DNA of 64,000 nt from Candidatus Omnitrophota bacterium (GTDB lineage Bacteria > Omnitrophota > Gorgyraeia > VGKH01), in assembly GCA_022703055.1 (NCBI GenBank), contig JAKLEP010000001.1, positions 26,850 to 90,849 on the forward strand. The letters run 5' to 3'. Position 1 is the stretch's first letter. Every line of letters begins with the position of its first letter. The notes below the pieces were generated by a model. That model did not search any database, had not been told where the DNA came from, and saw nothing but the letters and a program-made list of their open reading frames with translations. Shown in pieces: positions 2,507 to 28,376 of this stretch. Made by a program: the position numbers and the translations under genes.

Positions 2507-4519
2507 TTATTCAAAATTAATATATCTGGTTTCTACCCTAAACGGCCTAAACGGCCTGCCTGTAGTCTTGAAGAATTTGGAGAAAAATTCCACGAACTGC
2601 AATCTAACAGGATGAACAAATGCTCCCAGCAAATTCATCATGAAAGACAAAATATGCCCTCCAACAAAAATCAGGCATAAAATTAAAATGGAAAATGAGA
2701 CTTTAAGCACACCTATATTATTTATAAACGGTATGCTTGAAGGTAAAATGCTACTAAACTGCACGGCAATCAGGTTTATAGTATTTGCCATAACTCCTGT
2801 CACCATGCCCAGCGCCCAAAGCCTGCTATAAGAGAGAATGTCGCTAAGGTACCCGGATAATGCGCTATAAAGATTATACGCCCCATAAAACAGCTTTGAG
2901 CCTATGCCTTTTTCCGAACGGCCTTGAGTCAAAACAAGAACTATGCTTGCTGCCAAAGCAGAATAATTAAACAAACCAGAGAGATTTTTGTTGCCGAGAT
3001 TCAAGAATGTTAACCCAATACCGGTAAGACCGAATAATAATACTAGTGTAGGAACCTGATCTAAAAGAATATCTAAATAGCGTTTATTTTTGACATTGCC
3101 GATAGCAGCTACGATATTGCCGAACCAAACCTGAACGATGCCGAAGCTCAAAGCGATTCCCAAAAGTCTAGTAGCCTCCTTCAGGGGATCAAGTATAATC
3201 AAAGAATCTTTGAATTTCTTTAAAGGCGCGAATGCTGAATTATTTTGCGCTAATAAATCAAATAAATTGCCAAACCAGCTTCCGGTCAGAGCGCCGATAA
3301 TTATGGTGGAAATCCCGCAGTATAAAAATAGACGAAAAGCCTTTTTACCTTGCGGCCCCATCTTAACTTTCTTTAAGACCAGAAAACAAAGCAGTGCTAA
3401 AAGGAATCCATAACCAGCGTCAGAGACGCAAAATCCGAAATACAAGAAGAAAAACGGCGCCAGAAATGGCGTAGGATCTACTTCATTATATTTAGGCATG
3501 CCATATATAGACGTGATGAACTCGAATGGCCTCACAAGTGAATTATTTTCTAGAATTACCGGTATATCATCTGTTTCTTTTGGCTCGGAAACAAAAAAAG
3601 CCAAACTCTCAAATTCTTTAGCTACGATATTTTCCAATGGCTTGACATCTTTTGCCTTAATCCAACCGGTTAAACAAAAAGTATATTTTTGTTTGCTTAA
3701 AATCTTATCTGCCTCTTCTATATTCTTAATGTTCATAAAATAATCATGAACTATCATCAGCCTAAGCTTATCCTGAGCAAGACAGGTTATATCTTTTTTG
3801 ATTTCATCGATACGGTTGTTGATTGACGCAATCTCTCTTTTGATTTCGGAAAGCCTTTCTTCAACAGTACCGATATGCCTGCCCAAAACCACGAAACTAA
3901 AATTGTATTCCTTTAGGATATTCTCAAGCTCCCCTTGCTGTTTCTTATGGCAAATAATCAGGATATGGCTAATAACTTTATCCTGGCTGATAATTTCATA
4001 GAACAGTCTTATATTCTCTTTAACTCGCCTTTTTAACAGTTTCTCCAGGTCGGTATTCTTAATCGCCCCTAACAAAATAGCGCAGCTATTGGTATTATGG
4101 ATTAGCTCGATCGGTATCCTTAAATTACGCCAAGGCGATAAAAGTAAATTTTCCTGCGATAACTTGTCTTTATGCTGAGTAAAATGATGGAGATGCTTGC
4201 GTAAATCGGTCAGCGTCGCGATAAGAGACTGGTAATCGAAACCATTAATAATCTCTGTTATTCTGCCCTTAAAAACCCAAGGCTTCATAGAAAACATGCT
4301 CTCTAAGAAGTTGGCTGTTTGCTTAAAACCCGATAGAAAAGAAATAGATTCTTCTATTTCGACAAGATTAAAGCTGGTTTTATTTATAGAAGGCACTTGA
4401 TTTTCTTGTTGGGCTTGAGTTATTTCTACCATGCCCAGCTGTTGAATGCGGGAGATAAAGTCATCTTTGTCTTTTTCTAAGCCTATAACTTCTATTTTTT
4501 TAATCTTGGCTATGGCCAT
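2507..4519 (-). CDS. atpI: A/V-type ATP synthase subunit I (a-like stator)
   Basis: 670 aa with a soluble coiled-coil N-terminal half and a polytopic C-terminal half containing the conserved Arg region (SYSRLWALG). Confidence 0.8.
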   Translation of the reverse strand: MAIAKIKKIEVIGLEKDKDDFISRIQQLGMVEITQAQQENQVPSINKTSFNLVEIEESISFLSGFKQTANFLESMFSMKPWVFKGRITEIINGFDYQSLIATLTDLRKHLHHFTQHKDKLSQENLLLSPWRNLRIPIELIHNTNSCAILLGAIKNTDLEKLLKRRVKENIRLFYEIISQDKVISHILIICHKKQQGELENILKEYNFSFVVLGRHIGTVEERLSEIKREIASINNRIDEIKKDITCLAQDKLRLMIVHDYFMNIKNIEEADKILSKQKYTFCLTGWIKAKDVKPLENIVAKEFESLAFFVSEPKETDDIPVILENNSLVRPFEFITSIYGMPKYNEVDPTPFLAPFFFLYFGFCVSDAGYGFLLALLCFLVLKKVKMGPQGKKAFRLFLYCGISTIIIGALTGSWFGNLFDLLAQNNSAFAPLKKFKDSLIILDPLKEATRLLGIALSFGIVQVWFGNIVAAIGNVKNKRYLDILLDQVPTLVLLFGLTGIGLTFLNLGNKNLSGLFNYSALAASIVLVLTQGRSEKGIGSKLFYGAYNLYSALSGYLSDILSYSRLWALGMVTGVMANTINLIAVQFSSILPSSIPFINNIGVLKVSFSILILCLIFVGGHILSFMMNLLGAFVHPVRLQFVEFFSKFFKTTGRPFRPFRVETRYINFE

Positions 4520-15777: not shown

Positions 15778-15852
15778 TGGTGCGCCCGGCAGGAATTGAA
15801 CCTGCACACACAGCTCCGGAGGCTGTTGCCCTATCCGTTAGGCTACGGGCGC
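15778..15852 (-). tRNA. tRNA-Arg (anticodon CCG)
   Basis: The reverse complement reads GCGCCCGTAGCCTAACGGATAGGGCAACAGCCTCCGGAGCTGTGTGTGCAGGTTCAATTCCTGCCGGGCGCACCA. It has a 7-bp acceptor stem, a CUCCGGA anticodon loop, a GGTTCAATTCC T-arm and an encoded CCA. Confidence 0.85.
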
Positions 15853-21986: not shown

Positions 21987-23735
21987 TTGATAAATCTGCC
22001 GTCAAATGATAAAATAAAGCAAAACATGAATTTATTTAGACGGCTAACATATAATTACCCGGAACTAGCAAAGACGCTTACCATAGTGCTTATCTCAAGT
22101 GCTATATATTTCTTTTTACTTTCCGATATAAAATTCCTCGCTATCCCCAAACTAAAAGCCCAAGATGCTATGACTAGGATAGCCCATTTTATCAGCCCAA
22201 AGCCGAAAAACGTAGACAATATCATCGTGATTACGGTGGATGATGACTCCTTCAAATATCTTAATAAAAAATGGCCTTGGCGAAGGATAATGTTCGCTTA
22301 TCTGGTAGATAAAATCTCGGTTTCCCATCCCAAGGTTATAACTTTCGATCTGTCTTTTATCGGAGAAAGCGACATTCCAGCAGATGATGATATTATGAGC
22401 GAGGCATTTGCCGCGGCAGGCAATGTATTGTCCGCATCATATTTTACCAACGATTTCAAATATATGAAGCCCTATAATAAAATCGCTGAGAATTCACGCG
22501 GGTACGGCTTCATCAATAAACCCAGAGACGTGGATTTCTACGTCCGGCGCTCCAGGGCAGTGCTTTTTTCAAGAGAGGATAGGAAGTTTGACTATTCCAT
22601 GATGCTCAAAACCTTCGCCTTATATAAAAACATTCCCCTGGAATCTATAAAATTTAGCGGCAAACAAGTTTCTCTAGGCAATTATTCAATCCCAGTCGAT
22701 AGAAACGGCACTTATCCTTTAAATTTTACCTTAAAATTCAGCGAATTTAACATCGTACCTTTCTGGCAGATGATGAAAACCGAATTCCCGCCAGAAATGT
22801 TTAAAGATAAAATAGTCCTCGTTGGGCCTACAAATGAAATACTCCACGATGTGCATAATACGCCCTTAGGCCTTATGGCTGGCGTTGGAATAAATGCTAA
22901 TGAATTATTAATGCTTATGAATAATAGCTTCATTAGCTATATGCCTAAGTGGATAGAATTTCTAATCCTCTGCGTATTTGTCATTGCTATTTCCATTTTG
23001 ACTTATAGGGCCAGGAAGCCCAGGATTATATTTAAAGTCGCAGGCGCGGTAATTATTTTCTGGGAATTAGGGCTGTTATTATACCTGCGCAATATCCGCA
23101 TGGATTACTTCGCTCCAGCCGCCCTCATCATAGCCAGTTACGTAGGAATAAGCATCTATAAATACTTTGATTTAATTGTGCAGAATATTTCCCTAAAAAC
23201 CCAGGCCATAACCGATGAGTTGACTGGGCTATATACCTATAGATATTTTACGCTTCGCCTGCATAATGAGATAGAGCGCGCCAAAAGATACAATGTCAAT
23301 GTCTCTCTTGCCATGATGGATATCGACCATTTTAAAAAGATTAATGATACCTATGGCCATGAAGCAGGAAATATTATCTTAAAAGAGGTCGCGGAAATAT
23401 TAAAAACCAACACCCGCAAAGCAGATATTGTCTTCCGGTACGGCGGTGAAGAGCTATGTATTCTTCTTACCCACACTCCCAAGGAAGGCGCTGTGGTTTA
23501 CAGCGAGAAAATAAGGCAGCTGATTGCCACTAATTCATTTGCCGGTTCAAGAAACATCAAGGTAACGGTAAGTTTCGGAGTCGCTTCCTACCCTCTTGAT
23601 AATGTATTCTCCGGCAAAGAAATAATAAATGCGGCCGATGTCGCCCTGTACCACTCCAAGGAAACTGGCCGCAATAAAGTGACCTCTTTTAGCCCCTACT
23701 TAATGGAATCCGCCAAAGCCAAAAATCTTATCTAG
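21987..23735 (+). CDS. CHASE2 sensor domain diguanylate cyclase (GGDEF)
   Basis: 582 aa. The CHASE2-like region has IVITVDDDSF..KWPWRR..ITFDLSF and is followed by TM segments. The GGDEF domain has DIDHFKKINDTYGH and an active-site GGEEL, with an RKAD (RxxD I-site) 5 residues upstream. The start codon is uncertain: TTG at 21987 or ATG at 22026. Confidence 0.8.
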   Translation: MINLPSNDKIKQNMNLFRRLTYNYPELAKTLTIVLISSAIYFFLLSDIKFLAIPKLKAQDAMTRIAHFISPKPKNVDNIIVITVDDDSFKYLNKKWPWRRIMFAYLVDKISVSHPKVITFDLSFIGESDIPADDDIMSEAFAAAGNVLSASYFTNDFKYMKPYNKIAENSRGYGFINKPRDVDFYVRRSRAVLFSREDRKFDYSMMLKTFALYKNIPLESIKFSGKQVSLGNYSIPVDRNGTYPLNFTLKFSEFNIVPFWQMMKTEFPPEMFKDKIVLVGPTNEILHDVHNTPLGLMAGVGINANELLMLMNNSFISYMPKWIEFLILCVFVIAISILTYRARKPRIIFKVAGAVIIFWELGLLLYLRNIRMDYFAPAALIIASYVGISIYKYFDLIVQNISLKTQAITDELTGLYTYRYFTLRLHNEIERAKRYNVNVSLAMMDIDHFKKINDTYGHEAGNIILKEVAEILKTNTRKADIVFRYGGEELCILLTHTPKEGAVVYSEKIRQLIATNSFAGSRNIKVTVSFGVASYPLDNVFSGKEIINAADVALYHSKETGRNKVTSFSPYLMESAKAKNLI

Positions 23736-23771: not shown

Positions 23772-23809
23772 CCCCGCATAAATTTATTGCTGCTTAATTT
23801 TATGCGGGG
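23772..23809. terminator. Bidirectional rho-independent terminator between convergent genes
   Basis: Perfect 11-bp stem, CCCCGCATAAA and TTTATGCGGGG, with a 16-nt loop. An A-run lies upstream and a T-rich tract downstream. It sits between the GGDEF stop and the pilin-Hint operon stop. Confidence 0.75.
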
Positions 23810-23815
23810 TTTGGT

Positions 23816-24814
23816 TTATATATCCCCACCCATATCATCATTAGGAATATACTGTCTTTTATTATGCACCACTACCCCCCCGGCAATATAGGTATGATAG
23901 GGATTGACTTCCAGGTTATAGACTTTTACAGGCTCACGTACCAGCCTGATGCTGGTAATCTCTTCAGCCTGGCCCTGGGAGTTCAACAATTTGCTGCCTA
24001 TCGGCAGCTTACCTATCTCTACCCATTTGCCTTCGGAGTAAACAGGATGGTTGGGAGTAACCTTTAAGCTATCATTTACCACCAGGTACTCTTGGCCATC
24101 ATGCTGGAAGAACAGCTTTACGCTATCCTCCTTTAATGTCTTGGTCTTCTCATCAAAGGCCAGAATCTTATCTCCCACCTTAACATTCTCTATCGGCCTG
24201 GTTGAGCCATCAGCCATAAGTATGGGGGTGCCGGAGACAAAACAGGTGCCAGTAGGGCATGTTATGCTTCCGCAGCTTACACCATTACCCCGATATTGGC
24301 CACCCCAAGAGGTACAGCTGGCTTGGGTCCTTTCCTGGCAGTAGCCGGATTTGCAGCATGCTCCCGTAGGATCTGTAGGGACAATGTGTAATAGGCGGTT
24401 TTTGTTAGGGTCGCTGTTAGAGACAAGATATGTGGTATACCATCCCTCACGGTCTTTAGTGCCCCACTTGATTGTTCCGTCTGATTTATATATTGAGCCT
24501 ACAATATCCGATGTGGTATTGGATATCGGCACCTTAAACTTAATGTAATTGTTGATACAGGTGTACCCTGTCGGCGGGGTAGAGCAGCTTATTATTTGAA
24601 CATCGCCGTAATCCGCACCCAGGCGCGACTGGCTTAATTCCCTGGCGATTTTATCAATAGTGTAACGCGTTTTTTCCTGTAAATCGATATAGGCTGCATT
24701 TTTAATCCAGGTGTTTCTTCCCACCATTAAGACACTGAAAATAATACCCATAAATGCGGAGGCGATAAGTGCCACGACCAGAGTTTCTACGATAGTTAAA
24801 CCTTTGGGTTTCAT
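23816..24814 (-). CDS. Prepilin-type (type IV pilin-like) protein with a Cys-rich linker and a C-terminal Hint/BIL autoprocessing domain
   Basis: I place the start at ATG 24814 (AAGGAGG upstream, overlapping the stop of the preceding gene) rather than the track start at 24868. The N-terminus MKPKG|LTIVETLVVALIASAF is a class III signal with Gly-1 and Glu+5. Residues 191-318, CFVSGTPILMADGS..KVTPNHP..VYNLEVNPYHTYIAGG..VVVHN, contain intein blocks A, B, F and G. Confidence 0.8.
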   Translation of the reverse strand: MKPKGLTIVETLVVALIASAFMGIIFSVLMVGRNTWIKNAAYIDLQEKTRYTIDKIARELSQSRLGADYGDVQIISCSTPPTGYTCINNYIKFKVPISNTTSDIVGSIYKSDGTIKWGTKDREGWYTTYLVSNSDPNKNRLLHIVPTDPTGACCKSGYCQERTQASCTSWGGQYRGNGVSCGSITCPTGTCFVSGTPILMADGSTRPIENVKVGDKILAFDEKTKTLKEDSVKLFFQHDGQEYLVVNDSLKVTPNHPVYSEGKWVEIGKLPIGSKLLNSQGQAEEITSIRLVREPVKVYNLEVNPYHTYIAGGVVVHNKRQYIPNDDMGGDI

Positions 24815-24824
24815 GTTAGCCTCC

Positions 24825-26948
24825 TTAGTATAAAGCCTGGCAATGTTTCTTTTGATTCCAGTATTCATTCTTAAGTTTGATGGTTAATTTATTCGTTGCT
24901 GTTCTGACTCCCGGCGGAGTCGGAGAATTAGTATCTGAATAATGCTCATCATAACTAAAATAATTATTTTCTCCTTTGGGAGGGACGCTGCCCATGTCTT
25001 CCGGCCATCCCAAAACTGTTCTACTTCTTATCCCTTTTTGATTAATATCATACGTTCCGTTTGCTGGAAAGTTATCTTGCGGTAATTGCACCAATGAGCC
25101 AACAACTTTTCTTTTATGCTCAATAATTTTGTCATAAGATGGGGGCGTTTTTAAATCGCCGGGATCTTTATAATACCACCATCTTTCCAGAGTATGAGGA
25201 GCAATATCATGGCTTATAATAGAGACAACATATGTGTAGTCTTTATCGACGGGATTAGCCATTTTTTGGTAATTTTGCGCGTACCAGTTACTTCTGCCGT
25301 CAATAAAATCTTCCGTATACGGGTATCTAATGTTATGGAATGTTTGCGGTAATCTGTCAGGGTAATTGAATTGGTCGGAGAGAAGATAGGTAAAACCGGC
25401 TGAAATTGCGGCAGAAGGCTGCCAATCGGCAGTGTTGTAATTGCCTTTAATATAAATATTTTGTTTCGATACAGTAGTCAGGCCTCCCTTGGGCAATTTT
25501 TTGGCGTTATCCAGAATTACTCCTGTGTTGGAAAAAATCATACCGTTTTGAGGAGCAAGATCATTTTTTATCATTTTATCAACATGGATAACTAGGGCTG
25601 TGTTTAGATTCGTGCTATTGGTATTTCTAAATTGCACCATTTCAAAAACTACATCATTATTTATGATAATCCTTCCGTCTTCATCAGTCAACAGATATTC
25701 ATTGCCAATTTTGACATTTGCCATCCCTCCCATGGATTCGATATATATTCCTTTCTTCTGGGATTCTGATTTGAAATACCCTTCTTCGACAGTGAGGGGG
25801 TCTATTGTTTTTCCTCCGGAGTTGGCTTCTTGTACAATATTATCTAAGCCTTGGGATTGCATTAAGTCTTTCCAGGCTAAAGGCTGGGACTTCGAATTGG
25901 TATAATTCCTTTGGCTGTATTGATTTGGTAGCCAATTAACTGGGCCAAAATCTTGGGTTATTCTCCAGAAATTATCGAATATATAACTAGCAGATAGGCG
26001 GTTGGGTAGGATATTGCCGTTTATTTTGCTGATAAGTTGGTTATTTTGGTAGATGCTGGGATTAGTATTGGGATCAATATATGGCTGCCCGGAATTTGGG
26101 TCCCAATTTATATAGCGTCCCGGGTTGTTAGGGTCTTCCATTAGCAGGCCTCTGTTTTCTCCGCTAGCATGGCCATCGTTTATGTTTCTGTAATATCGGT
26201 TACCGAAATCGTCTTCGTAAGGTTTGACCCATGGGTTTCTGAGCCAATAGTACCTGCCGTCGAAAATATAGTAGAATTCTCCGACATCTTCCGCTGTAGG
26301 TATATTTGATTCAATAAAATATTTAATTGTTTGCGGAGTGCTTAATTCGGCGGTATTTAAAAGATTGGCTTTATCTCCGAAGATGATATCCTTGTTGCTA
26401 TGGATGCCTCCGCCGAGAGTAGAGTCAAAAGAGTCTAGGGTTATATAAGATAGCATTAATTCATTAGGCGTAAACAGGAAGTATTCAAATAGATTTCTAA
26501 ATAGGACCTTGCTGCCGTAGACATTGGAATCTCCGCTTTTGGAATAGATTATATGTTGTCCGGAATCAGGGCTGATGTAGCACATCACAGAGAATTTTCC
26601 GTCTTTGGAAGAATAATATCCGTCCTTATCTATCTCGCAGGTATCTTTTAGTAGGACGTTCGGCATTTGGCCCTGTGAAGCTAAAGAAACAAGATTGTAA
26701 TCATTGCCTTTTTTAACCGGCGTGTGTGTTTTCCATGTTTCTCCCTGCAGGCTTAATTCTAAAGTCGCAAACTCAATACCTCTAAGCGCTTGGTATTTTC
26801 CTTGGAGATTATAAAGGTTTCTTTCGGTAATAAAATGATTATCAATGGTATGCCTTACAAATGCGGCAAGATAAATTGACATCACCGTCAGGACGAAAAA
26901 CGCGAATGGAGCTAAAAACCCTTTTTTGTTGTTGATAATCTTAAACAT
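24825..26948 (-). CDS. Large pilus-associated protein with PilX/GspK-like hydrophobic N-terminus
   Basis: 707 aa. The N-terminus NKKGFLAPFAFFVLTVMSIYLAAF resembles the PilX_N type but has no Glu+5. The rest is Asn/Tyr/Pro-rich with no motifs I recognise. It sits between the two pilin-Hint genes, separated by gaps of 21 and 10 nt. Confidence 0.45.
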   Translation of the reverse strand: MFKIINNKKGFLAPFAFFVLTVMSIYLAAFVRHTIDNHFITERNLYNLQGKYQALRGIEFATLELSLQGETWKTHTPVKKGNDYNLVSLASQGQMPNVLLKDTCEIDKDGYYSSKDGKFSVMCYISPDSGQHIIYSKSGDSNVYGSKVLFRNLFEYFLFTPNELMLSYITLDSFDSTLGGGIHSNKDIIFGDKANLLNTAELSTPQTIKYFIESNIPTAEDVGEFYYIFDGRYYWLRNPWVKPYEDDFGNRYYRNINDGHASGENRGLLMEDPNNPGRYINWDPNSGQPYIDPNTNPSIYQNNQLISKINGNILPNRLSASYIFDNFWRITQDFGPVNWLPNQYSQRNYTNSKSQPLAWKDLMQSQGLDNIVQEANSGGKTIDPLTVEEGYFKSESQKKGIYIESMGGMANVKIGNEYLLTDEDGRIIINNDVVFEMVQFRNTNSTNLNTALVIHVDKMIKNDLAPQNGMIFSNTGVILDNAKKLPKGGLTTVSKQNIYIKGNYNTADWQPSAAISAGFTYLLSDQFNYPDRLPQTFHNIRYPYTEDFIDGRSNWYAQNYQKMANPVDKDYTYVVSIISHDIAPHTLERWWYYKDPGDLKTPPSYDKIIEHKRKVVGSLVQLPQDNFPANGTYDINQKGIRSRTVLGWPEDMGSVPPKGENNYFSYDEHYSDTNSPTPPGVRTATNKLTIKLKNEYWNQKKHCQALY

Positions 26949-26969: not shown

Positions 26970-28091
26970 TTAGTTCAAAGGCGCAATTTGGCTTTGGGCG
27001 TCGTAATAAATCGTTTCTCCCGAGAGGCCCTTTTTGTTCTCTAGTTTAATTTTAATGGTTACAAGTTTTTTGTTGGCATCCGTTGAAAAAGTTGCTTCTA
27101 CTGCTTTGTCGGCGATCACTCTTCTGTCTAATATAGTTTTTACGGTAGCTGCGTAAGCTTCTTTTATCGCTAAAATACCATCGAATAATTTACCCCAAGG
27201 GCCTGGTGCTCTGTTTTGGTTTTGTGTTTTGTTATGGACTAATATGCCGTCGACAAAATATGTATGGCAAGGCTTGGCAGTTAAATTATAAACCGTGGCT
27301 TCTTGATTTATTTTCTCTATGGTTTGTATTTCTTCGGTTTGGTTTTTGTAATTTAAGAGCTTATCCCCGATTTTTAAAGATCTGATTTTTACCCATTTTC
27401 CTTCGTGGTAGAAGGGATGCTCTGGCGTGACTTTAATCCGGCCGTTAATAATAAGATATGACTTGGCCTTGTGCACAAAAACTTTTGCCACTTTGTCTTC
27501 TTGGGTTTTTTTTGTTTTTTCATTAAATGCCAGAATTTTATCTCCGGGCTTAATTTCTTCGATGACTTTTGTAGAACCATCAGCCATAAGTATAGGGCTA
27601 CCCGCCAAAAAACAACCGCCACCACCTCCGCCACCACCTCCGCCACCGCCAGATTCTTGCCATTCCCAAACATCAACTACCAGTTTTTTACTATTATTGA
27701 CATATATGTCAAAGTAGCCGTTTTTTACCATAACTGTATCTCCGTTAGCAGCAAGATAATAAGCCCCGGTTTTTAACTGACCTAAATTTGTAAAGACTGT
27801 ACCGGCTACGGAGTCATTTGTGACAACTGGAACCTGGAATGTAATTTTATTTCCAAGACATTCGCCTTGTTGGCAGGATGCGATTTCAATTGTTCCGGCG
27901 ACAGCTTTCTCAATAAGATTCTGTGAGGACTCGATGGCATTTTGTGCTTGTTGTTTTAAAGTCGAATACATATTGGTTTTCACAAAACCGGTGTTCATCA
28001 GAATAAAGATGCTGAAGATAATAGCCGCTAAGCCCATACTTATTCCGGCGACGACCATGATTTCTATGAGCGTGAAACCTCTGTTTTTCAT
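26970..28091 (-). CDS. Prepilin-type (type IV pilin-like) protein with an internal poly-Gly linker and inserted Hint/BIL domain
   Basis: 373 aa. The N-terminus is MKNRG|FTLIEIMVVAGISMGLAAIIF. Twelve Gly (residues 148-159) precede residues 160-287, CFLAGSPILMADGS..KVTPEHP..VYNLTAKPCHTYFVDG..ILVHN. An 86-aa beta-rich tail follows. Confidence 0.8.
   Translation of the reverse strand: MKNRGFTLIEIMVVAGISMGLAAIIFSIFILMNTGFVKTNMYSTLKQQAQNAIESSQNLIEKAVAGTIEIASCQQGECLGNKITFQVPVVTNDSVAGTVFTNLGQLKTGAYYLAANGDTVMVKNGYFDIYVNNSKKLVVDVWEWQESGGGGGGGGGGGGCFLAGSPILMADGSTKVIEEIKPGDKILAFNEKTKKTQEDKVAKVFVHKAKSYLIINGRIKVTPEHPFYHEGKWVKIRSLKIGDKLLNYKNQTEEIQTIEKINQEATVYNLTAKPCHTYFVDGILVHNKTQNQNRAPGPWGKLFDGILAIKEAYAATVKTILDRRVIADKAVEATFSTDANKKLVTIKIKLENKKGLSGETIYYDAQSQIAPLN
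27615..27650 (-). repeat. (GGN)12 coding microsatellite (poly-glycine)
   Basis: The minus strand reads ggc ggt ggc gga ggt ggt ggc gga ggt ggt ggc ggt, immediately 5' of the Hint Cys codon at 27614-27612. Confidence 0.9.
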
Positions 28092-28103
28092 TTTTGCCTC
28101 CTC

Positions 28104-28138
28104 AAAAATTTAACCCATCCTTTGAAAGGGATGGGTTT
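28104..28138 (-). terminator. Leader hairpin plus U-tract, the candidate riboswitch expression platform
   Basis: The RNA reads AACCCAUCC(C)UUUCAAAGGAUGGGUU followed by AAAUUUUU. It lies between the aptamer and the GAGGAGG SD of the first pilin gene. Confidence 0.5.
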
Positions 28139-28149
28139 CAGAAAAAATA

Positions 28150-28230
28150 CGTTGGCAGCCAGGCAACCCATATAAATATGGGTCCTTAGCTTTGCGCCCC
28201 ATCCTTTCAGATGGTTTACCTTTTTCAACG
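28150..28230 (-). promoter_or_regulatory. Candidate c-di-GMP-I (GEMM-I) riboswitch aptamer
   Basis: The 81-nt RNA is CGUUGAAAAAGGUAAACCAUCUGAAAGGAUGGGGCGCAAAGCUAAGGACCCAUAUUUAUAUGGGUUGCCUGGCUGCCAACG. It has a closing stem CGUUG/CAACG and a GAAA-capped hairpin. The core AAACCAU..GAAAG..UGGG.CGCAAAGC matches the V. cholerae Vc2 aptamer as I remember it. A second hairpin follows. Confidence 0.6.
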
Positions 28231-28251
28231 CAAGCCTAATTGTCCAATAAA

Positions 28252-28279
28252 AGTATAACATAAAAAAAGGGCTTTTCAA
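28252..28279 (-). promoter_or_regulatory. Promoter of the pilin-Hint operon (extended -10)
   Basis: The minus strand reads TTGAAA (28279-28274), a 16-nt spacer ending in TGT, then TATACT (28257-28252). This gives an extended -10 of the form TGnTATACT, about 20 nt upstream of the aptamer. Confidence 0.5.
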
Positions 28280-28376
28280 TAATAGTGGAAGCCTGTAAGA
28301 AAGCGTTTTCTTGCAATATTATTATGAATAAAAATTGATCAATGGCTTGTTTTTGGCTAATGATAAAAGCTTGTTC

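Follow-up and report, generated by a model that had tools for sequence, protein, structure and literature searches.

Class I cyclic di-GMP (c-di-GMP) riboswitches, or GEMM-I RNAs (Rfam family RF01051), have been characterized in Vc2 of Vibrio cholerae and Bc1 of Bacillus, among others. In Vc2 the ligand is contacted by G20, A47, and C92; G20 contacts one guanine of the ligand, while C92 forms a Watson-Crick pair with the other (PMC4744006, PMC5888326). An interhelical pair, C44-G83, has been described as universally conserved in GEMM RNAs (PMC4744006), and an 11-nucleotide-type tetraloop receptor defines the 'type I' GEMM-I RNAs (PMC11218506). Cd1 of Clostridioides difficile is a transcriptional OFF switch located upstream of flagellar genes. 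Its aptamer and a separate downstream terminator can be present together, both in competition with an antiterminator; ligand favors the terminator, and the decision has been shown experimentally to be kinetic (PMC9262584). A second group of the same fold, the GEMM-Ib elements of Geobacter (such as those of pilM and Gs1761), exclusively recognizes c-AMP-GMP (PMC5888326), and some of its members control pilus-related genes through terminators (PMC9262584). Here we describe an 81-nucleotide element of this kind in a 64,000-nucleotide stretch of DNA from a Candidatus Omnitrophota bacterium (contig JAKLEP010000001.1, assembly GCA_022703055.1), which as a whole is called the window below.

The element (28150–28230, minus strand) is probably a c-di-GMP class I riboswitch that leads a three-gene pilin-Hint operon and follows a terminator/antiterminator OFF logic. 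Along the minus strand, the locus consists of a promoter, a leader, the 81-nucleotide aptamer, a U-rich linker, a hairpin with its tail, a Shine-Dalgarno sequence (SD), and the ATG of a 373-amino acid open reading frame (ORF). The promoter (28252–28279) has the -35 hexamer TTGAAA (28279–28274), a 16-nucleotide spacer, and the extended -10 box TGtTATACT (28260–28252); TTGAAA-16-TATACT with its upstream TG reached 10 out of 12 in a promoter scan. It appears to be a promoter of the sigma-70 extended -10 type, from which transcription would start ~15–20 nucleotides 5' of the aptamer, and 21 nucleotides of leader separate the end of the -10 box from the start of the aptamer. The linker (UAUUUUUUCUGA, 28138–28149) is 12 nucleotides in length and brings a U-run right after the first helix of the aptamer. 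GAGGAGG (28103–28097) and the ATG (28091–28089) occupy 28089–28103. The 161-nucleotide leader folds with -52.5 kcal/mol (z -3.6), and none of 200 shuffled sequences was equally stable.

Much of this layout had been anticipated by a reading made from the sequence alone (the sequence-only reading). Its promoter, placed ~20 nucleotides before the element, was recovered by our scan, and the letters it quoted for the 81-nucleotide element at 28230–28150 are identical to those found here. The hairpin it placed before the GAGGAGG was likewise found by a terminator scan and does not overlap the aptamer, and the pilin-Hint nature of the operon is borne out by PF07591 domains and prepilin N-termini in genes 1 and 3. 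Its assignment of the element to GEMM-I holds at the level of the Rfam clan and of the canonical contact nucleotides, but the top-scoring Rfam model is not RF01051 but RF03167, a label that proves to be nondiagnostic (see below). The base-by-base comparison with Vc2 that the reading offered is superseded by the covariance-model match.

The assignment is based on a scan of the whole window with Rfam 15 at gathering thresholds, which reports the best family per clan. Two matches were returned, the element and a tRNA. The element was matched by RF03167 (c-di-GMP-I-GGC) at 28150–28229 on the minus strand with 63.5 bits (gathering cut-off 59; E 1e-12) over the full model, positions 1–80. A second family of the clan (CL00126) also exceeded its own gathering cut-off at the aptamer site in a search limited to 28050–28350, so that two families of the GEMM-I clan pass here.

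The nucleotides that contact the ligand in Vc2 are all present. The equivalent of G20 is G28220, which is unpaired and lies just 5' of the first pair of helix P2; the equivalent of A47 is A28193; and the equivalent of C92 is C28155, the last junction nucleotide before the 3' strand of helix P1. To judge from positions in the model alignment, the interhelical C44-G83 pair corresponds to C28196, from the internal loop of P2, and G28164, from a bulge of helix P3 (28164–28196). These five nucleotides are invariant in a MAFFT alignment of 10 distinct homologous leaders (described below). For comparison, one genome per species across many phyla was scanned with the core pattern AAAGGNAAACCNNNNGAAANNNNGGGNCGCNAAGC, which was derived from the window's own core and left the base at position 47 free. 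The scan yielded at least 126 aptamers in at least 120 stretches, and all 126 aptamers among the matches listed have A at the position-47 equivalent. The window shares further features with RF01051, namely the three-helix junction, a P2 capped by a GNRA tetraloop, and the core AAAGGnAAACC...GGGnCGCAAAGC, which is conserved; like members of that family, it lies in the 5' leader of an operon with a cell-surface or motility role.

Folded by itself, the aptamer has a centroid structure that is the P1/P2/P3 junction, with a minimum free energy (MFE) of -26.7 kcal/mol (z -2.8); this reproduces the three helices that the sequence-only reading had drawn (P1 as CGUUG/CAACG, P2 as CCAUCU-GAAA-GGAUGG, and P3). 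P1 is formed by CGUUG (28226–28230) and CAACG (28150–28154), and at 5 base pairs is short for RF01051. P2 (28194–28219) has a G-C and a U.G pair, an AAA/GGC internal loop, six base pairs (CCAUCU/GGAUGG), and the tetraloop GAAA (28208–28205). The P2 loop is of the GNRA type in all homologues aligned, reading GAAA, GAGA, or GUAA. P3 (28157–28191) is the hairpin AGCU-A-AGG-ACCCAUA-UUUA-UAUGGGU-UG-CCU-GGCU. We looked in the P3 of the window for the canonical 11-nucleotide tetraloop receptor (YUAAR/UAUG) and found a continuous helix without it. The element therefore differs from 'type I' GEMM-I RNAs in having the GNRA loop on P2 but a plain P3 hairpin, and falls outside that subtype. By a crude motif test, about one-third of the 126 canonical GAAA-loop aptamers listed also lack the receptor half-motif, and hence a P3 without a receptor is within known variation. 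Where docking would be expected there are invariant CCC/GGG pairs, which could act in the manner of a simple helical minor-groove receptor.

Homologous leaders were sought through the downstream protein and not through the RNA, after which the contigs were fetched. Ten further distinct loci were recovered, encoding proteins of 91, 72–75, 56, 50, 45, and 32% identity, and all have the same gene order: a PAC2-family gene, the leader, the pilin-Hint gene, a gene for a ~700-amino acid protein, and a second pilin-like gene. An aptamer-like region followed by a hairpin and a U-run occurs in every one of them. TTGAAAA and TG(T/C)TATACT are kept in 10 of the 11 leaders, the window included; locus L138 has the extended -10 box alone (TGCTATACT). 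L138, the most distant locus, with large insertions in J1/2 and P2, is also the only one whose aptamer is not recognized by Rfam. A scan of genome contigs with the pilin-Hint protein returned no relative, while a DNA pattern specific to this leader family picked out three loci in metagenome contigs, all of which had already been recovered.

Across the 10 aligned leaders, 96.7% of the alignment cells in P1, P2, P3, and the terminator are paired, as compared to 27–46% when the partners are slid against each other. Both partners have changed in six pairs (four of P3, two of the terminator), and the observed covariation score was reached in none of 500 shuffles. P2 is paired in 100% of cells, and its sequence has barely changed even between operons whose proteins share only 45% identity; that of P3 changes freely. 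Among the 126 canonical aptamers listed, P2 is highly variable. This contrast would fit a double constraint on P2 and is one more argument for the antiterminator described below.

A second role for P2 is suggested by the hairpin downstream. The terminator hairpin (28112–28137; AACCCAUCC-CUUUCAAA-GGAUGGGUU) was reported by the terminator scan as AACCCATCC..GGATGGGTT and then AAATTTTT at 28137–28112, and it carries the two compensatory pairs just mentioned. Its tail is AAAUUUUU (28104–28111) in the window and AAUUUUUU, CAAUUUUU(UU), or UUUUUAUUU in homologues. This hairpin and U-run rank first among terminator-like sites in 20 kb, in which 35 hairpin-plus-U-run sites were counted as compared to 20.2 ± 3.7 in shuffled sequence; the organism appears to use terminators of this type. 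The terminator is part of the MFE structure of the full-length leader in 9 of the 11 cases, including the window (the two others being L129 and L138), mostly together with P2.

The 5' arm of the terminator and the first nucleotides of the loop (CCCAUCC(C)UUUC, 28124–28135) are complementary to the tetraloop and 3' strand of P2 (GAAAGGAUGGG, 28198–28208). The sequence-only reading had pointed out this complementarity between 28125–28136 and 28198–28207, and it is well supported. By RNAduplex, the P2 loop and 3' strand are the best upstream partner of the terminator arm in all 11 leaders, including L138, with energies of -14 to -21 kcal/mol, whereas the second-best partners reach -6 to -11 kcal/mol; the corresponding values in the window are -15.5 and -9.4 kcal/mol. 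When transcripts were cut before the 3' arm of the terminator, the antiterminator pairing was the MFE structure in 8 of 10, and it was 1.9–4.3 kcal/mol better than the fold retaining P2 in five of six leaders scored. In an alignment of the two strands, 91.7% of the cells pair, against 40–61% for slid partners, and three pairs have changed on both sides. Two of these join the tetraloop to nucleotides of the terminator loop, with GAAA facing UUUC, GAGA facing UUCU, and GUAA facing UUAC. In the third, a G-C pair has become A-U, and the same change weakens the terminator (C-G to U.G). Changes of this kind are not accounted for by the terminator helix alone.

Four other pairings were considered and rejected. 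The P3 3' strand AUGGGUU can pair with AACCCAU of the terminator arm (-9.4 kcal/mol), which is the second-best option in the window and is not conserved. UAGGC of the 5' leader pairs with the P3 3' strand in two MFE structures, that of the window and that of L145, but the leader is not conserved in sequence. The A-run of J1/2 and the linker U-run form A-U pairs alone, with the flanking G-C pair not conserved. Lastly, a hairpin that would sequester the SD (AUUUUUG/CAAAAAU) is not conserved in homologues with long spacers.

These features suggest the following mechanism. With c-di-GMP bound, P2 and its tetraloop would be locked in the folded aptamer, leaving CCCAUCC(C)UUUC to pair with GGAUGGGUU and form the hairpin 28137–28112. 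This hairpin and its U-run would stop transcription before the pilin gene, that is, in the OFF state. With no ligand, CCCAUCC(C)UUUC would invade P2 as it emerges from the polymerase, and together with the tetraloop and 3' strand (GAAAGGAUGGG) would form an antiterminator of 10–11 base pairs, resulting in read-through and the ON state. Ligand cannot block the terminator directly, since the terminator and aptamer do not overlap; and since no alternative pairing is conserved except the one that takes up a strand of the aptamer, OFF is the best-supported logic. At the level of sequence, the leader has both a downstream intrinsic terminator and, as its mutually exclusive alternative, an antiterminator built on a strand of the aptamer, which are the parts of an OFF riboswitch. 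We infer from these parts that the RNA binds c-di-GMP, that the hairpin terminates transcription, and that regulation runs in the OFF direction. In this respect, the architecture behind the OFF proposal of the sequence-only reading is conserved, with covarying pairs and in all 11 leaders, while the direction itself is still an inference. The arrangement, known from sequence and folding, resembles that of Cd1 in having a downstream terminator and an antiterminator derived from an aptamer strand. However, the Cd1 antiterminator employs the aptamer-stabilizing 'A' strand (along with T and H), whose partner in the P1ATH scheme is the 5' strand of the aptamer (PMC9262584), whereas in the window the partner is the tetraloop and 3' strand of P2, an internal helix.

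Several observations weigh against this mechanism. P1 and P2 barely vary among the leaders, and so the support for these two helices comes from the Rfam model and not from covariation here; the covariation expected for the proposed helices was seen in P3, with its four pairs changed on both sides. A single lineage supplied all of the leaders, and few independent events may lie behind the changes counted. In the window itself, one C is bulged in the antiterminator, which as a consequence is only isoenergetic with the P2 fold (a difference of 0), and the AAA that interrupts the U-tract of this copy separates it from the stem. For the antiterminator, the two strands were aligned by hand, and bulges were taken out where RNAduplex had placed them. 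Once the 3' arm is present, the terminator fold is better than the antiterminator-forced fold by 3–8 kcal/mol (six leaders), meaning that the decision would be kinetic and made co-transcriptionally. Finally, the window's own RF01051 score is masked by clan competition; it is almost certainly at least 35 bits, the gathering cut-off of that family.

A more radical version of this mechanism is that the family constitutes a distinct GEMM-I design, in which the expression platform reads the docking of the P2 tetraloop and not the closure of P1, with a plain CC:GG helix in place of the receptor. We consider this doubtful. In such a design, the GNRA loop and the P2 3' strand would be both the toehold and the target of the antiterminator, and the U-run after P1 would contribute either a pause that depends on ligand or a first site of termination. 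Its affinity or kinetic window could then differ from those of Vc2- and Cd1-type switches. The design may be usual in Omnitrophota, as another leader of the phylum (L005) seems to make similar use of its P3 strand.

That leader was noted separately, in a Candidatus Omnitrophota metagenome-assembled genome (MAG; contig JBARQV010000027, locus L005, 4200–4420). It has an extended -10 promoter, a canonical GEMM-I aptamer that scores 79.8 bits with RF01051 and includes a tetraloop receptor, and a terminator, upstream of a gene for a large, secreted-looking protein. The 5' arm of its terminator (ACCCAUAG) matches the 3' strand of its P3 (CUAUGGU), and it appears to use this strand as the window would use P2.

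Two alternatives to the proposed platform were weighed, neither of which we think probable. In the first, P1 and the U-run at 28149–28141 form the decisive, ligand-stabilized terminator or pause, and the hairpin is a constitutive attenuator or stabilizer. A U-run of 4–8 U does follow close after the P1 3' strand in 10 of the 11 leaders, and may be a pause site or a weak, P1-dependent terminator stabilized by ligand; likewise, the 28137–28112 hairpin is present in the full-length MFE structure of 9 of the 11 leaders whatever the fold of the aptamer region. But P1, with 5 base pairs closing a three-way junction, would be a poor terminator stem, and this explanation does not account for why the terminator arm and loop track the tetraloop and 3' strand of P2. 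The two mechanisms are not exclusive of each other.

The second alternative, an ON switch or a translational rather than transcriptional mode of action, fares little differently and is likewise given a low chance. In its favor, c-di-GMP often promotes pilus and adhesion genes, as in C. difficile, where a class II c-di-GMP riboswitch switches pilA1 ON, and the MFE structure of the window has a weak AUUUUUG/CAAAAAU hairpin around the SD. The lack of overlap between terminator and aptamer again argues that ligand cannot directly prevent termination, and the conserved alternative pairing gives OFF. As for translational control, the start codon is ~80–115 nucleotides past the hairpin in L132, L135, L136, and L138, and the hairpin flanking the SD is not conserved in these leaders.

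The label given by Rfam raises the question of whether the element is instead the orphan variant c-di-GMP-I-GGC (RF03167), sensing something other than c-di-GMP. RF03167 is the best-scoring family and lies above its gathering cut-off, and the window shares with it a short P3 and an AAAGG junction. The name 'GGC', attributed to Weinberg et al. in PNAS in 2017, reportedly refers to positions 20, 47, and 92. In the variant consensus (...GGGACGC-G-AAgCc), the nucleotide that immediately follows the P2-closing pair, at model position 37 (Vc2 position 47), is a conserved G. In the window and all of its homologues, this defining G is replaced by A (A28193, a mismatch to the model), the base found in all of the GEMM-I aptamers listed in the comparison scan. 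The window thus carries G/A/C, the canonical contact set, and not G/G/C. Moreover, ordinary A-bearing aptamers from other phyla (L062 twice, and L113) are labeled RF03167 at 70–75 bits, while others are labeled RF01051 at 77–82 bits, and RF03167 outscores RF01051 on aptamers with the canonical A in L062, L113, L126, L139, and L140. The syntenic sister leaders also flip between RF01051 (54.7–61.6 bits; L129, L132, L135, and L136) and RF03167 (60.8–63.6 bits). The choice between the two labels evidently does not track the defining nucleotide. The element is best described as an ordinary c-di-GMP-I aptamer of an Rfam-detectable family, and identity with the orphan variant is very unlikely. An RF03167 annotation at 60–75 bits does not imply a variant site, and the defining base must be inspected.

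Equally remote is a cGAMP-sensing riboswitch of the GEMM-Ib type. Specificity in this group is said to be associated with A at position 20, according to work by Kellenberger and by Nelson in 2015. The window has G at this position (G28220), as do all of its homologues, and its architecture is of the OFF type, in contrast to the pilM element, which is an ON switch. What speaks for GEMM-Ib is that its members have the same fold, belong to the same clan, and were originally annotated as GEMM-I (PMC9262584). Chance resemblance, or a coding function within a mechanically predicted 63-amino acid ORF that spans the aptamer region (28088–28279), is refuted by the covariance-model E of 1e-12, by covarying conservation across operons at 32–45% protein identity, by the TTG start of the ORF, which is the -35 hexamer and hence upstream of the transcript, and by P3 lengths that differ among homologues by non-multiples of three.

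The proposed riboswitch would link c-di-GMP signaling to a conserved pilin-Hint operon of Omnitrophota, an uncultured phylum in which regulation is hardly grounded in experiment. It differs from described RF01051 members in its host and in the genes it would regulate. With its compact aptamer of 81 nucleotides and its terminator, it is suitable for work in vitro. The novelty is mild, lying in the host phylum, the pilin-Hint targets, and the P2-based antiterminator, and little is added to riboswitch biology itself; the missing tetraloop receptor and the use of P2 as the switching strand are minor variations.

Gene 1 of the operon (26970–28091, minus strand) encodes a 373-amino acid protein composed of a prepilin N-terminus with a G|FTLIE N-methylation motif, a poly-Gly linker, a PT-HINT domain (PF07591, 5e-22), and an 85-amino acid tail. 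Its match to PF07963 (4e-4, 20.2 bits) is just below the Pfam cut-off of 21.2. Gene 2 (24825–26948, minus strand) encodes a protein of 707 amino acids with a hydrophobic N-terminus; it had no match in Pfam and is syntenic in all homologous loci. Gene 3 (23816–24868, minus strand; 350 amino acids) again combines a pilin-like N-terminus with PT-HINT (PF07591, 1.6e-22), followed by a tail of only 13 amino acids as compared to 85 in gene 1. The second pilin-like gene has the Hint domain in the homologous loci wherever contig and annotation allow. In genes 1 and 3, a type IV prepilin-like N-terminus is thus fused to an autoprocessing domain (C...HN), an arrangement reminiscent of self-cleavage of the Hedgehog or pretoxin type. 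Omnitrophota conserve the operon even where identity falls to 32%, with synteny in L126, L129, L132, L135, L136, and L138. The gene 1 protein is identical in the NCBI MAG GCA_028686955.1 and in several metagenome assemblies, and its named relatives are from Candidatus Omnitrophota/Omnitrophica.

Upstream of the operon is a divergent PAC2-family gene. Downstream, a convergent gene on the plus strand (21987–23735) encodes a CHASE2-GGDEF protein, a putative diguanylate cyclase (PF00990, 9e-46; PF05226, 1e-42), which has the motif GGEEL in place of GGEEF and ends 80 nucleotides from the stop codon of the operon. We count this adjoining GGDEF gene as context for a c-di-GMP ligand. Between the two, a strong hairpin (CCCCGCAUAAA..UUUAUGCGGGG, 23772–23809) marks the end of the operon and is shared with the convergent gene. 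Having a U-run on either strand, it looks like a bidirectional terminator; it was read from the sequence, and because of its long loop it was missed by the simple terminator scan.

Some of the homologous leaders have additional elements. A ~50-nucleotide module of two hairpins (GUCCCGACGnUAAGUCGGGA and UCCGACnGAAnCGUCGGA), located upstream of the gene at 3001, extends the tip of P3 in L135 and that of P2 in L138 as an insertion; the module was looked for in the window and is absent from it. In L136 (~2750–2810), an apparent duplicate of the 5' half of the aptamer (ACGUUGAAAAGGGUAAGCCCCGUUG-GAAA-UAAUGGGGC) and an extra hairpin precede the complete aptamer called by Rfam. L132, L135, and L136 have a ~80-nucleotide spacer between terminator and start codon, which the window lacks. 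This spacer contains a second extended -10-like box (TGTGATAAGCT, TATGATAAACT, or TGTGATAAACT), which may be an internal promoter independent of the riboswitch. Over the terminator of the window, a match to the Rfam family 'Gut-1' (23.4 bits; gathering cut-off 50) was taken as chance. The tRNA gene returned by the Rfam scan lies at 15781–15852 on the minus strand (67.2 bits) and is unrelated to the riboswitch.

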